From the NCBI RefSeq assembly GCF_029227855.1, contig NZ_CP074356.1: a stretch of DNA of 64,000 bases. The stretch is one strand, 5' to 3'. Of this stretch, positions 9,400-40,565 are shown in pieces (position 1 is the first letter of the stretch; each line of letters begins with the position of its first letter). The notes below the pieces were generated by a model. It was not told the DNA's origin. It searched no databases and saw only the letters and a program-made list of their open reading frames with translations. The translations under genes were made by a program, and so were the position numbers. The stretch is from Escherichia coli (GTDB lineage: Bacteria; Pseudomonadota; Gammaproteobacteria; Enterobacterales; Enterobacteriaceae).

Positions 9400-10092
9400 T
9401 CACGTCACCCGTTTTGCCCGACTTGCCTTCGTCCATTCTGGATTTGCACAGCGCGGACATAATTGTTTTTCCCCCGCGTTCATATGAATGATTTCACTGC
9501 AACGAATGCAGGCATAGTCCGCCGACTCGGGTACCACTTTGTAACGCTGAGTACAGTCACTGGGTAAAATAAGTAAGCCCGGTTTCACCTTGTCATCTTC
9601 AAAGAAATAGACACTGATTTGCCCGTTGGTTTCGAGAATCGCCAGACGTACTTGCCCCAACTGCTCTACACCGCGCAATCGTAGCTCCATAAAGAACTCA
9701 AATTCCGTCATGTTGGAGTTATTGAGTTTCGACCAGGCCAGCTCGCCATCTTCAATAATGACAACCGGCTTACCTTCCAGAAGATCTTCCAGTTTTTCAC
9801 TGTGTGCCATCAACCACATTACCAGGCGGTATAACAACGCCAGAGTAATAAAGACGATAAGTACCGGGACCATCGGCACATCATCATAAAACGCCACATC
9901 TCCCGCCGCTGATCCCAGCGTCAGAATGATTAACACTTCAAAAAGCGACATCTGCCGCACACCGCGTCTTCCGGTCATTTTGAGGAACAAAAAAACCAGT
10001 ACAAAGGTATAAAGACTACGTAGTGCCACTTCGCCAAGGAAATCAAAAGGCACTTTATCAAATGCCATACGGTGGAGATCAAACGCCTTCAT
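9400..10092 (-). CDS. ycaP: DUF421-family inner-membrane protein YcaP
   Basis: 230-aa ORF with N-terminal transmembrane segments; position between serC and ycaO matches K-12. Confidence 0.85.
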   Translation of the reverse strand: MKAFDLHRMAFDKVPFDFLGEVALRSLYTFVLVFLFLKMTGRRGVRQMSLFEVLIILTLGSAAGDVAFYDDVPMVPVLIVFITLALLYRLVMWLMAHSEKLEDLLEGKPVVIIEDGELAWSKLNNSNMTEFEFFMELRLRGVEQLGQVRLAILETNGQISVYFFEDDKVKPGLLILPSDCTQRYKVVPESADYACIRCSEIIHMNAGEKQLCPRCANPEWTKASRAKRVT

Positions 10093-10221
10093 TTTTATGC
10101 TCTTATCGTGGTTTATCCACTAAAAGCATAGTCAACAGTTCATCGGCATGGCGGCGGTGATAGCGCCTTTGAGATAAAACCCGTATTATTGCGCGCTTTC
10201 CGTACGACTAAAGTGATTTTC

Positions 10222-11982
10222 ATGACGCAAACATTTATCCCCGGCAAAGATGCCGCACTGGAAGATTCCATCGCTCGCTTCCAGCAAAAACTTTCAGACC
10301 TCGGCTTTCAGATTGAAGAGGCCTCCTGGCTGAATCCGGTGCCTAACGTCTGGTCTGTACATATTCGCGACAAAGAGTGCGCACTGTGTTTTACCAACGG
10401 TAAAGGCGCAACCAAAAAAGCGGCGCTGGCTTCTGCACTCGGTGAATATTTCGAGCGTCTCTCAACCAACTACTTTTTTGCTGATTTCTGGCTGGGCGAA
10501 ACCATCGCCAACGGTCCGTTCGTGCATTATCCCAACGAAAAATGGTTCCCACTGAGCGAAAATGACGATGTGCCAGAAGGGCTGCTCGATGACCGTCTGC
10601 GCGCATTTTACGATCCGGAGAATGAATTGACCGGCAGTATGCTGATTGACCTGCAATCCGGTAACGAAGATCGTGGTATTTGCGGTCTGCCGTTTACGCG
10701 CCAGTCCGACAATCAGACCGTTTATATTCCGATGAATATCATTGGTAACCTGTACGTTTCTAACGGTATGTCCGCTGGCAATACCCGCAACGAAGCACGC
10801 GTTCAGGGGTTGTCCGAAGTTTTCGAACGCTACGTGAAAAACCGCATTATTGCTGAAAGCATCAGCTTGCCGGAAATCCCGGCAGACGTGCTGGCGCGTT
10901 ACCCAGCGGTGGTTGAAGCCATCGAAACGCTGGAAGCAGAAGGTTTCCCAATCTTTGCTTATGATGGTTCGCTTGGCGGCCAGTATCCGGTGATTTGCGT
11001 GGTACTGTTTAATCCTGCTAACGGCACCTGCTTTGCCTCTTTCGGTGCGCATCCTGATTTTGGCGTAGCACTGGAACGTACCGTGACCGAGCTGCTGCAA
11101 GGTCGTGGCCTGAAAGATTTGGATGTGTTTACTCCGCCAACCTTCGATGATGAAGAAGTTGCTGAACATACCAACCTCGAAACGCACTTTATCGATTCCA
11201 GCGGCTTAATCTCCTGGGACCTGTTCAAGCAGGATGCCGATTATCCGTTTGTGGACTGGAATTTCTCCGGCACCACGGAGGAAGAGTTTGCTACGCTGAT
11301 GGCTATCTTCAACAAAGAAGATAAAGAAGTTTATATTGCCGATTACGAGCATCTGGGCGTTTATGCTTGCCGAATTATCGTGCCTGGCATGTCCGATATT
11401 TATCCGGCTGAAGATCTGTGGCTGGCGAATAACAGTATGGGCAGCCATTTACGTGAAACGATTCTTTCGTTACCAGGCAGCGAGTGGGAAAAAGAAGATT
11501 ACCTGAACCTCATCGAGCAACTGGATGAAGAAGGTTTTGATGACTTTACCCGCGTGCGTGAGCTGTTGGGTCTGGCGACCGGGTCGGATAACGGTTGGTA
11601 CACCCTGCGTATCGGTGAATTAAAAGCCATGCTGGCGCTGGCTGGTGGCGATCTGGAACAGGCTCTGGTCTGGACCGAATGGACGATGGAGTTTAACTCA
11701 TCAGTATTTAGTCCGGAACGCGCCAACTATTATCGCTGCCTGCAAACGTTGTTATTACTGGCGCAGGAAGAAGATCGCCAGCCGCTGCAATATTTGAATG
11801 CGTTTGTTCGCATGTACGGCGCAGATGCCGTGGAAGCCGCCAGTGCGGCAATGAGCGGCGAAGCGGCGTTTTATGGCTTGCAACCAGTAGATAGCGATCT
11901 GCACGCGTTTGCAGCACATCAGTCGTTGTTGAAGGCCTACGAAAAGCTGCAGCGCGCCAAAGCAGCATTCTGGGCAAAATAA
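10222..11982 (+). CDS. ycaO: YcaO-domain protein (founding member of the YcaO ATP-dependent amide-activating superfamily)
   Basis: 597-aa ORF trimmed to MTQTFIPGKD (586 aa); location upstream of focA-pflB. Confidence 0.93.
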   Translation: MTQTFIPGKDAALEDSIARFQQKLSDLGFQIEEASWLNPVPNVWSVHIRDKECALCFTNGKGATKKAALASALGEYFERLSTNYFFADFWLGETIANGPFVHYPNEKWFPLSENDDVPEGLLDDRLRAFYDPENELTGSMLIDLQSGNEDRGICGLPFTRQSDNQTVYIPMNIIGNLYVSNGMSAGNTRNEARVQGLSEVFERYVKNRIIAESISLPEIPADVLARYPAVVEAIETLEAEGFPIFAYDGSLGGQYPVICVVLFNPANGTCFASFGAHPDFGVALERTVTELLQGRGLKDLDVFTPPTFDDEEVAEHTNLETHFIDSSGLISWDLFKQDADYPFVDWNFSGTTEEEFATLMAIFNKEDKEVYIADYEHLGVYACRIIVPGMSDIYPAEDLWLANNSMGSHLRETILSLPGSEWEKEDYLNLIEQLDEEGFDDFTRVRELLGLATGSDNGWYTLRIGELKAMLALAGGDLEQALVWTEWTMEFNSSVFSPERANYYRCLQTLLLLAQEEDRQPLQYLNAFVRMYGADAVEAASAAMSGEAAFYGLQPVDSDLHAFAAHQSLLKAYEKLQRAKAAFWAK

Positions 11983-12387
11983 AATCAAATAGCCTACGCA
12001 ATGTAGGCTTAATGATTCGTCTGAGTTATATTACGGGGCGTTTTTTTAATGCCCCGCTTTACATATATTTGCATTAATAAAATAATTGTAATTATAAAGT
12101 TAAATGTCGGTAATTTGTATTTAATAAATACGATCGATATTGTTACTTCATTCGCCTGGTGCTCCCTTTTAATTAACTGTTTTAGCGGAGGATGCGGAAA
12201 AAATTCAACTCATTTGTTAATTTTTAAAATTTATTTTTATTTGGATAATCAAATATTTACTCCGTATTTGCATAAAAACCATGCGAGTTACGGGCCTATA
12301 AGCCAGGCGAGATATGATCTATATCAATTTCTCATCTATAATGCTTTGTTAGTATCTCGTCGCCGACTTAATAAAGAGAGAGTTAGT
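11983..12387 (+). promoter_or_regulatory. focA-pflB multi-promoter control region (anaerobically regulated; FNR/ArcA/IHF sites expected)
   Basis: About 400-bp AT-rich non-coding leader upstream of the focA GTG start. The very long regulatory region with multiple promoters is established for this operon; individual sites were not mapped here. Confidence 0.6.
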
Positions 12388-13245
12388 GTGAAAGCTGACA
12401 ACCCTTTTGATCTTTTACTTCCTGCAGCAATGGCCAAAGTGGCCGAAGAGGCAGGTGTCTATAAAGCAACGAAACATCCGCTTAAGACTTTCTATCTGGC
12501 GATTACCGCCGGTGTTTTCATCTCAATCGCATTCGTCTTCTATATCACAGCAACCACTGGCACAGGAACAATGCCCTTCGGCATGGCAAAACTGGTTGGC
12601 GGCATTTGCTTCTCTCTGGGGCTGATTCTTTGTGTTGTCTGCGGAGCCGATCTCTTTACTTCCACAGTGTTGATTGTTGTTGCTAAGGCGAGTGGGCGAA
12701 TCACCTGGGGTCAGTTGGCGAAAAACTGGCTAAATGTCTATTTTGGCAACCTGGTCGGCGCACTGCTGTTTGTACTTTTAATGTGGCTTTCCGGCGAGTA
12801 TATGACCGCGAATGGTCAATGGGGACTAAACGTCCTACAAACCGCCGACCACAAAGTGCACCATACTTTTATTGAGGCCGTCTGCCTTGGTATCCTGGCA
12901 AACCTGATGGTATGTCTGGCAGTATGGATGAGTTATTCTGGCCGCAGCCTGATGGATAAAGCGTTCATTATGGTGCTGCCGGTCGCGATGTTTGTTGCCA
13001 GCGGTTTTGAGCACAGTATCGCAAACATGTTTATGATCCCGATGGGTATTGTAATCCGCGACTTCGCATCTCCGGAATTCTGGACCGCTGTCGGTTCTGC
13101 ACCGGAAAATTTTTCTCACCTGACCGTGATGAACTTCATCACTGATAACCTGATTCCGGTTACGATCGGTAATATTATCGGCGGTGGTTTGTTGGTTGGG
13201 TTGACATACTGGGTCATTTACCTGCGTGAAAACGATCACCATTAA
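12388..13245 (+). CDS. focA: Formate channel FocA
   Basis: Translation from GTG at 12388 (VKADNPFDLLLPAAMAKV...) gives the 285-aa formate-nitrite transporter family protein. The 398-aa ORF in the track is an upstream in-frame extension through the promoter region. Confidence 0.93.
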   Translation: MKADNPFDLLLPAAMAKVAEEAGVYKATKHPLKTFYLAITAGVFISIAFVFYITATTGTGTMPFGMAKLVGGICFSLGLILCVVCGADLFTSTVLIVVAKASGRITWGQLAKNWLNVYFGNLVGALLFVLLMWLSGEYMTANGQWGLNVLQTADHKVHHTFIEAVCLGILANLMVCLAVWMSYSGRSLMDKAFIMVLPVAMFVASGFEHSIANMFMIPMGIVIRDFASPEFWTAVGSAPENFSHLTVMNFITDNLIPVTIGNIIGGGLLVGLTYWVIYLRENDHH

Positions 13246-16558: not shown

Positions 16559-16723
16559 TCCGCTCTGCATAAATAATTCAGAGCTCTATTTCTAACGCCC
16601 TTACAGCACAGCTTCCAAATGTATTACCCAAACCGCCAGTATATGTCCTGCGGCTTACGCGCATTTCTCGATTATGTAAAAACGGGTCAGATCTGCCAGA
16701 GTCAGCGTCACCGACCACAATAA

Positions 16724-24426: not shown

Positions 24427-24615
24427 AATGGCTCACTCAAGCTTGCTCACGATTGATTCCAGTAACAAACCGTATTGTGTAATTATTTCTATAGCAGGTC
24501 GCTATATAGGCTTGTATACATCGAATAATTTGAAAATCAAAGAGATAGGTAGATTTTCACTCGAAAGTAGTATTACGTGTAAGTGAGGAGTAATTATTGT
24601 TCGGTATCAAAGGGA

Positions 24616-24648
24616 GACAAAAAAAGCGCCCGCAGGCGCTTTTTAGAT
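24616..24648 (-). terminator. Rho-independent terminator after serS
   Basis: Hairpin agcgcccgcaggcgct with flanking A/T runs about 20 bp past the serS stop. Confidence 0.6.
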
Positions 24649-24664
24649 TCAGAAAAATTGGGTA

Positions 24665-39491: not shown

Positions 39492-39579
39492 GGTGAGGTG
39501 TCCGAGTGGCTGAAGGAGCACGCCTGGAAAGTGTGTATACGGCAACGTATCGGGGGTTCGAATCCCCCCCTCACCGCCA
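39492..39579 (+). tRNA. serW: tRNA-Ser (anticodon GGA)
   Basis: 88-nt sequence GGTGAGGTGTCCGAGTGGCTGAAGGAGC...GGTTCGAATCCCCCCCTCACCGCCA with long variable arm and GGA anticodon; infA-adjacent copy, hence serW rather than serX. Confidence 0.95.
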
Positions 39580-39620: not shown

Positions 39621-39629
39621 GCATTTTAT

Positions 39630-39708
39630 CTGCCTGTACGGCAGTGAACGGTATAAAAATCGAGTTTTTCTTTCGGTTGGCTTTCTAAGCTGCCTGTACG
39701 GCAGTGAA
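39630..39708 (+). repeat. Two direct copies of a 19-20-bp hairpin-forming motif (tgcctgtacggcagtgaac) spaced about 59 bp apart
   Basis: Exact duplicate seen at 39631-39649 and 39690-39708 downstream of the serW terminator; each copy is itself a small palindrome (ctgcc-tgtac-ggcag). Confidence 0.7.
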
Positions 39709-39858
39709 CTCAAATACTACACGTTTAGTCCGTTATTAATAAAGCAAAACCATCTCATTTTCCTGCTACCACCCTTTTTTATCCTTACCTTCCCGCAGCA
39801 CTAATTATCAACAACTTACCATCATCATCAAAAAAAGGGTCTGAACCTCCTCCACCCC

Positions 39859-40565
39859 ATAAATAAATATCCTCCGGCATAGCCGGAGGTTTTTCAAATG
39901 CGCCTATAAGGCTCTCTTACCAGCCGCGCCCTAACAGGCGCACACGATCTGACATTTGCATCCAACTTCGTTACTTACGGCCCGTAAACGGGCTGCCCGG
40001 ATAGGGAATCGATAACTGCTCTCCCATTTTATCCTCTTCAAGCTGGTGCTTTATGTAATCCTGTATCTTCGCCGTGTTCTTACCCACTGTATCGACGTAG
40101 TACCCTCTGCACCAGAACTCCCTGTTCCTGTATTTGAATTTCAAATCACCAAACTGCTCGTAAAGCATCAGACTGCTTTTCCCTTTCAGATATCCCATAA
40201 ACCCGGATACGCTCATTTTGGGCGGGATCTCCACAAGCATATGGATATGATCTGCACAGCATTCAGCTTCCAGAATCCGTACGCTTTTCCACTCACACAG
40301 CTTTCTCAAAATACTGCCTATTGCTCTACGCTTCTCTCTGTAGAACACCTGTCTTCGGTATTTTGGCGCAAAAACTATGTGATATTTACAGTTCCATCGG
40401 GTGTGCGCTAAGCTCTTTTCGTTCCCCATTGGGACCCCCTTTTGATTTCTTGTTTGACACTTGCAGTTGCCAGACCGCAAAGTGTTTTAACAAATCAAAA
40501 GGGGTTTTAATAACTGGCTCAAAGCTGAAAGCTTTCCGGAACCCCCAGCCTAGCTGGGGGTTTTC
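39859..40565 (-). mobile_element. IS200-type insertion sequence (IS200/IS605 family, single tnpA); ends approximate
   Basis: Y1/HUH transposase ORF plus IS200-type architecture: RBS-sequestering stem-loop just upstream of the tnpA start (40440-40500) and a perfect 8-bp-stem hairpin cccccagc-cta-gctggggg at 40538-40556. The serW-clpA gap here is about 709 bp longer than I recall for K-12. Ends estimated from typical IS200 geometry, plus or minus 20 bp. Confidence 0.6.
39971..40429 (-). CDS. tnpA: IS200 transposase TnpA (Y1 HUH transposase)
   Basis: 152-aa protein from MGNEKSLAHTRWNCKYHIVFAPKYRRQVFY with HUH-type motif (HIHMLV) and catalytic Tyr region, characteristic of IS200 TnpA. Confidence 0.9.
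   Translation of the reverse strand: MGNEKSLAHTRWNCKYHIVFAPKYRRQVFYREKRRAIGSILRKLCEWKSVRILEAECCADHIHMLVEIPPKMSVSGFMGYLKGKSSLMLYEQFGDLKFKYRNREFWCRGYYVDTVGKNTAKIQDYIKHQLEEDKMGEQLSIPYPGSPFTGRK

Follow-up and report, generated by a model that had tools for sequence, protein, structure and literature searches.

Genome-mining pipelines flag YcaO domains as markers of RiPP pathways, and the ycaO gene carried by a 64-kb stretch of Escherichia coli DNA (the window) raises the question of what such a gene does where no biosynthetic cluster surrounds it. The coding sequence occupies positions 10222-11982 on the plus strand, with coordinates identical to those of the RefSeq CDS, and encodes a protein of 586 amino acids. 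The frame is intact over 586 codons from the ATG at 10222, which is also the RefSeq start, and the EcYcaO chain in the PDB is likewise 586 aa long, matching this start; a mechanical list of open reading frames opens the frame further upstream, at a TTG at 10189. A 4.5-kb query around the gene was 100% identical to strain JNEC-KY178, and of 5426 complete E. coli genomes, all but seven (5419) carried the ycaO region at a coverage of at least 80%. The encoded protein matches a cluster of 1425 member sequences (P0002) at 100% and agrees with the chain of PDB entries 4Q84, 4Q85 and 4Q86 at 585 of 586 positions, the sole difference being a serine at position 112, where K-12 has threonine. This difference is conservative, and the position lies outside the residues mutated in published scans of the interface and the ATP site (PMC13063428). 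In length, domains, isoelectric point and neighbours, and in how it is oriented with respect to ycaP and focA, the gene matches EcYcaO (UniProt P75838; the three PDB entries above). The window gene is an ordinary E. coli ycaO; earlier publications cover its structure, its substrate and the fact that it stands alone.

Two domains account for most of the protein. The YcaO ATP/Mg2+-binding catalytic domain, which includes Glu202, spans 10396-11394 on the plus strand (Pfam PF02624, aa 59-391) and aligns over the full model (1-325 of 325), scoring 254.9 bits (cutoff 25.7; E=1.6e-75) and placing the protein in the YcaO superfamily; TIGR00702 likewise scored 573 against a cutoff of 75.65. The C-terminal helical, TPR-like YcaO_C domain follows at 11440-11964 on the same strand (PF18381, aa 407-581; 220 bits, E=2.5e-65) and identifies a member of the group that carries this domain of roughly 150-170 residues, for which dimerisation and possibly uL16 docking have been discussed as roles (PMC13063428). 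The NCBIfam equivalog NF040716 was matched over positions 1-570 of its 571, at 917.1 bits (cutoff 700). The protein is also strongly acidic, having 92 Asp and Glu residues against 42 Lys and Arg and a computed pI of 4.38, compared with a published pI of 4.4 for EcYcaO, whose acidity is complementary to the basic uL16 (PMC13063428). A pI below 6 was common to 87 of 93 full-length representatives. Since a word-index homologue search returned only relatives of at least 84% identity, the distant ones came from an exhaustive search of representatives. Residues E75, E78, E199, E202, R203 and R286 are all present in the window protein and are near-invariant among 59 representatives (50% clustering), with Glu at position 202 in 57 of the 59. 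The assignment of this putative ATP-site set is supported by that conservation together with the published E202A variant, which served as the inactive ATP-site control (PMC13063428). With E202 intact and near-identity to the characterised enzyme, the window protein falls in the uL16-thioamidating group.

What this group does has been established outside the window. A thioamide between Met82 and Gly83 of uL16 was first seen by 2-Å cryo-EM and mass spectrometry, and YcaO was proposed as the responsible enzyme (Watson et al. 2020, PMC7550191); EcYcaO has since been shown to thioamidate uL16 Met82 in an ATP-dependent manner, on the evidence of a knockout, of co-expression and of reconstitution in vitro (Rice et al. 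2026, PMC13063428). According to the latter study, the Met82 thioamide is absent from ribosomes of a ycaO deletion, and co-expression of ycaO leads to complete modification of uL16, which ATP-site variants such as E202A fail to achieve. Purified MBP-EcYcaO modified full-length uL16 only with Na2S, MgCl2 and ATP, the sulfide source being non-physiological, and did not modify 11- and 21-residue peptides or GluC fragments of uL16 (PMC13063428). The two proteins bind with a Kd of ∼10 nM through a wide interface of complementary charge, and when the whole proteome was screened against EcYcaO with AlphaFold3, only uL16 (0.81), uL29 (0.84) and YcaO itself (0.88) scored with confidence; orthologues from Klebsiella and Pseudomonas also thioamidate uL16 (PMC13063428). 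The enzyme places a rare backbone thioamide beside the peptidyl-transferase centre of the ribosome. Deletion of ycaO by itself gives no growth phenotype, and any physiological role of the thioamide would take in its epistasis with the hydroxylation of Arg81 by RoxA. The gene for the substrate, rplP (uL16), is present in E. coli and lies outside the 64-kb window.

We therefore assign a probability of about 0.93 to the reading that the window gene is EcYcaO, a homodimeric, acidic, ATP-dependent amide-activating enzyme that thioamidates Met82 of uL16 and stands alone; the published functional evidence comes from K-12/BW25113 and BL21, and the window strain carries T112S. The sequence searches yielded no evidence against this identity or function. 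In this reading the extended basic loop of folded uL16 reaches into the YcaO active site. By analogy with the general YcaO mechanism, from which the order of the chemical steps is taken, a sulfide equivalent would attack the backbone carbonyl of Met82. The resulting oxyanion would then be phosphorylated by ATP, and elimination of phosphate would leave the Met82-Gly83 thioamide near the peptidyl-transferase centre. In our reading ycaO stands alone because recognition of uL16 needs neither a partner protein nor a leader peptide.

The surroundings of the gene agree with such an arrangement. The RefSeq annotation supports the original prediction that ycaO is flanked by ycaP and focA: ycaP, encoding a DUF421/YetF membrane protein, lies at 9400-10092 on the minus strand, and focA, encoding a formate channel (Form_Nir_trans) and starting with GTG, lies at 12388-13245 on the plus strand. 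Both are regarded as neighbours rather than partners. Farther out, RefSeq lists rpsA, cmk, ycaL, aroA, serC and ycaP upstream and focA, pflB, pflA and ycaM downstream, and the Pfam families found over ∼6 kb on each side correspond to this list (S1, Cytidylate_kin, Peptidase_M48, EPSP_synthase, Aminotran_5 for SerC and DUF421; then Form_Nir_trans, PFL-like/glycyl radical, Radical_SAM for PflA and AA_permease). No TfuA, ThiF/E1-like, ThiS, RRE/PqqD or McbC-type dehydrogenase was found by Pfam or in RefSeq within ∼6 kb on either side. The class-V aminotransferase family, to which SerC belongs in Pfam, also takes in cysteine desulfurases. As a sulfur donor, SerC was nevertheless rejected, being a well-known phosphoserine aminotransferase with an ipTM of only 0.12 with YcaO (PMC13063428). 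The candidacy of ycaP as a partner was rejected because it is missing beside ycaO in two Pantoea-type loci; the supplementary table of PMC13063428 lists an AlphaFold3 ipTM of 0.11 for its product with EcYcaO.

Precursor peptides were sought by collecting every ORF of at least 10 aa from the spacers on both sides of ycaO (towards ycaP and towards focA) in four enterobacterial loci, those of E. coli and Klebsiella (L002) and two of Pantoea type (L010 and L011). No small ORF was conserved in either spacer among the four. The only cross-species peptide matches were frames over the padded ends of ycaO and focA, rejected as precursors for their overlap with the ycaO or focA coding sequence, and one 12-codon frame within a conserved block at 12310-12387, rejected since it lies inside the focA promoter block and is kept in Klebsiella only. 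The check attached to the original prediction, a search for precursor peptides and TfuA or E1-like genes over 5 kb on either side, was thus run and came out negative, and the description of a stand-alone housekeeping YcaO rather than a RiPP cluster was borne out by the lack of partner families and of any conserved small ORF. The absence of RiPP partners at ycaO is now tested rather than assumed, and E. coli YcaO is a counter-example to the use of the domain as a RiPP marker. The same prediction had placed azoline and thioamide chemistry in YcaO enzymes elsewhere, acting with partners; the gene does stand alone here, but EcYcaO itself installs a thioamide, with no TfuA to assist it and with a folded ribosomal protein as substrate.

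Eight other orthologue loci, from about seven lineages, had no neighbour common to all. Klebsiella keeps the order ycaP, ycaO, focA-pflB-pflA; the two Pantoea-type loci have no ycaP, and serC abuts ycaO. In a relative of 46% identity (P0129) focA is still downstream, and one of 67% identity (P0121) lies between genes of the RNase E/G family and the Methyltransf_9 family of methyltransferases. Elsewhere ycaO was found with a CLC channel gene on one side and a YkuD-like gene on the other (P0122) and upstream of a Usp gene (P0126), and a gene in which YcaO is fused to an OsmC-like domain (P0123) had unrelated neighbours. No sulfur carrier or RiPP partner was found beside ycaO in the orthologue loci examined, and neither RRE, TfuA nor a precursor peptide was present nearby at the window locus or in the eight orthologue neighbourhoods. 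The stand-alone description holds generally across lineages, in agreement with the report that E. coli has no TfuA homologue and that no TfuA occurs near any uL16-type ycaO (PMC13063428).

The non-coding DNA on both sides was analysed as well. The divergent intergenic region between ycaP and ycaO, 129 bp at 10093-10221, presumably holds the ycaO promoter and contains no conserved small ORF; a consensus scan of this region gave no strong sigma-70 match and no convincing ycaO promoter. Just 3′ of the ycaO stop codon, RNA folding predicted two stable hairpins on the plus strand, at 11991-12009 and 12034-12056. The fold of 11991-12056 reached -31 kcal/mol (z = -4.05), and none of 200 shuffles folded as well; the hairpin at 11991-12009 was also found by a terminator scan, on the minus strand. 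These hairpins probably act as a terminator that ends the ycaO transcript and separates it from focA-pflB. Among four genera, the only strongly conserved part of the 405-bp ycaO-focA spacer is a non-coding block at 12310-12387 on the plus strand, directly upstream of focA. It contains TGATCTATATCAA and CTATAAT, which, going by established features of the focA-pfl promoters, we take to be a putative FNR site and a putative -10 element; the block probably is regulatory DNA of focA-pflB and not of ycaO. A scan against Rfam at gathering thresholds gave no hit to any RNA family within ycaO or its vicinity.

Other explanations for the gene were weighed against these results. The original prediction linked it to a housekeeping role in methylthiolation of ribosomal protein S12; its ribosome-related, housekeeping side stands, and the S12 function has been superseded by the uL16 activity reconstituted in vitro (PMC13063428). 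The name S12 methylthiotransferase accessory factor is carried by RefSeq, NCBIfam and the PDB, and goes with the idea that the main job of YcaO is to aid RimO in methylthiolating Asp88 of uS12. As summarised in PMC13063428, Strader et al. (2011) observed that YcaO co-purified with tagged uS12 and that deletion of ycaO lowered uS12 modification from 99% to 84%. An effect of this size can be indirect, and against an accessory role stand the findings that RimO by itself is enough to modify a uS12 peptide in vitro, that deletion of rimO abolishes uS12 modification completely, that AlphaFold3 gives YcaO an ipTM of 0.31 with uS12 and 0.16 with RimO as opposed to 0.81 with uL16, and that direct ATP-dependent catalysis on uL16 has been reconstituted (PMC13063428). 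An accessory role as the main function is accordingly judged very unlikely; the S12 name is a legacy label that is out of date, and the protein should be labelled a uL16 Met82 thioamidase in place of an S12 accessory factor.

Two further alternatives start from the position of the gene. Its place directly upstream of focA in Escherichia, Klebsiella, the Pantoea-type loci and the relative of 46% identity, together with the ycaO-focA synteny across Gammaproteobacteria noted by Watson et al. (PMC7550191), might point to a functional tie with focA-pflB-pflA, such as modification of PflB or co-regulation. This linkage is missing, however, in four of the loci (P0121, P0122, P0123 and P0126), and in the window ycaO is separated from focA by 405 bp of spacer, in which the two strong hairpins and a separate conserved promoter block are located. 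The uL16 thioamide was found in aerobically grown cells, and the same paper cites Sawers for independent transcription of focA-pfl (PMC7550191); PflB has an ipTM of only 0.14 with YcaO (PMC13063428). A functional tie seems highly improbable on these grounds, and the adjacency is treated as conserved gene order without functional coupling. Still less credible is an overlooked precursor or partner that would make this a cryptic RiPP locus, even though many YcaO enzymes are RiPP enzymes and the mechanical listing has dozens of short ORFs around ycaO. Beyond the coding-end and focA-block frames, no short ORF is conserved among the Escherichia, Klebsiella and two Pantoea-type loci, no E1/ThiF, RRE, TfuA, ThiS or dehydrogenase gene is nearby, and the TOMM/SagD model TIGR03604 gives the protein 43.7 bits, far short of its cutoff of 219.25. 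The neighbourhood also differs in each distant lineage, and the locus is core to E. coli, as its presence in 5419/5426 genomes shows. A RiPP role for the locus is effectively refuted.

Among known systems, the methanogen YcaO that acts on a glycine of McrA (TIGR03266; for example PDB 6PE3, MJ1094) has the same chemistry as the uL16 thioamidase EcYcaO. Both perform ATP-dependent exchange of a backbone oxygen for sulfur on a protein that is not a RiPP, and they have the ATP-binding core in common, with weak homology over aa 175-306 of the window protein. The methanogen enzyme, however, has no counterpart of the 150-residue YcaO_C domain, can act on short peptides and frequently occurs with TfuA, whereas EcYcaO needs a folded substrate and works without TfuA. 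The window protein scored 39.1 bits with TIGR03266 against a cutoff of 365, and its flanks hold no TfuA; it works like the McrA-type family, in that it carries out thioamidation, but is not a member. The RiPP cyclodehydratases (TOMM enzymes SagD, McbD and BalhD; cyanobactin enzymes LynD and PatD) likewise have the YcaO ATP-binding fold and amide O-phosphorylation in common with EcYcaO. They depend on an E1-like or RRE component, either as a partner or fused, and on a precursor peptide encoded next to them, often with a dehydrogenase as well, none of which the window locus has; with a TIGR03604 score below the cutoff and with partners and precursor missing, the window protein falls outside that family.

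A third group of relatives consists of the OsmC-YcaO fusions of Bacteriovoracales and Halobacteriovorax. One of them (P0123) was the third-best match in the exhaustive representative search; its YcaO and YcaO_C parts are 54% identical to EcYcaO, with a pI of 4.72, and score 866.6 with NF040716 against the cutoff of 700. The fusions carry an additional N-terminal OsmC-like domain of ∼147 aa, which the E. coli protein does not have: no OsmC domain was detected in it by Pfam, and its score with the fusion model TIGR03549, 682 bits, stays under the cutoff of 900 and covers model positions 148-722 only. Among solved structures, the OsmC domain of the fusion comes nearest to members of the OsmC/Ohr family, though with weak E-values. 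All three cysteines in this domain (C50, C59 and C112) were invariant throughout the 120 clusters compared, whose median pairwise identity is 72%, and this is only moderate evidence of constraint. In Bacteriovoracales the acidic YcaO never occurs without this N-terminal domain and its cysteines. A tentative and rather doubtful proposal can be made, namely that uL16 thioamidation might draw its sulfur from a cysteine-based carrier of OsmC-related fold; the fusion would then mark a persulfide or sulfide relay, or a redox partner, for which primary metabolism would be the in-trans source in E. coli. The published AlphaFold3 screen lends no support to the free-standing OsmC of E. coli as a stand-in for the fused domain: its ipTM with EcYcaO is 0.15, and the values for TusA (0.16) and MoaD (0.17) are equally low (PMC13063428). 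The literature searched contained no discussion of the OsmC-YcaO fusion. The fusion forms a large family, with Halobacteriovorax, Bacteriovorax and Bacteriovoracaceae among its source names.

A feature of the wider YcaO family that may bear on the sulfur donor for uL16 thioamidation lies outside the window, in orthologues of EcYcaO, the ycaO product, from Bacteriovoracales/Halobacteriovorax (protein clusters P0123 and P0271-P0389). These proteins carry an OsmC-like domain fused N-terminally to YcaO, as in the fusion gene at 6001-8190 of L006, one of the loci of relatives. The OsmC-like domain contains three cysteines, all of which are invariant (120 of 120 clusters), and no discussion of the OsmC-YcaO fusion was found in the literature searched.

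Within the window, ycaP (9400-10092, minus strand) encodes a DUF421/YetF membrane protein and adjoins ycaO in Escherichia and Klebsiella; it is absent from beside ycaO in the Pantoea-type loci. At its C-terminus YcaP has a CxxC-(X16)-CxxC motif (ACIRCSEIIHMNAGEKQLCPRCANPEW), which resembles a zinc ribbon. On the other side of ycaO, the mechanically called focA open reading frame (12049-13245, plus strand; 398 codons) begins at an upstream ATG, while the RefSeq start is a GTG at 12388, giving 285 amino acids. The Pfam domain in the 398-codon frame begins only at residue 128, and the extra 113 codons 5′ of the GTG, which overlap the AT-rich regulatory spacer between ycaO and focA, showed no conservation across the genera compared.

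A minimal CRISPR array was identified at 39622-39709 (minus strand). It has a single full repeat of 28 nt (GTTCACTGCCGTACAGGCAGCTTAGAAA; Rfam CRISPR-DR4, 50 bits) and a degenerate second repeat 60 nt from the full copy, leaving one spacer of 32 nt. The array lies upstream of clpA, with tRNA-Ser (39492-39579) on one side and the gene for an IS200C transposase (about 39971-40429) on the other, and no cas genes are annotated nearby; it appears to correspond to a cas-less type I-F remnant known from the E. coli clpA-infA site. Directly abutting the IS200C copy is an Rfam match to the sRNA STnc490 (40439-40562, minus strand; 144.6 bits), and a second sRNA, STnc130, was matched at 24517-24651 (plus strand; 140 bits).

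An IS110-family element (about 51325-52350, minus strand; WP_059341307.1, labelled 'RNA-guided transposase' by RefSeq) lies between aqpZ and lysO as an insertion in this strain. Two annotated pseudogene fragments were also noted. One, of 111 nt, lies directly 3′ of pflA (about 16613-16723, plus strand; 'hypothetical protein, missing N-terminus'); the other is a pentapeptide-repeat gene with a frameshift, located where the window ends (about 63165-64000, minus strand).
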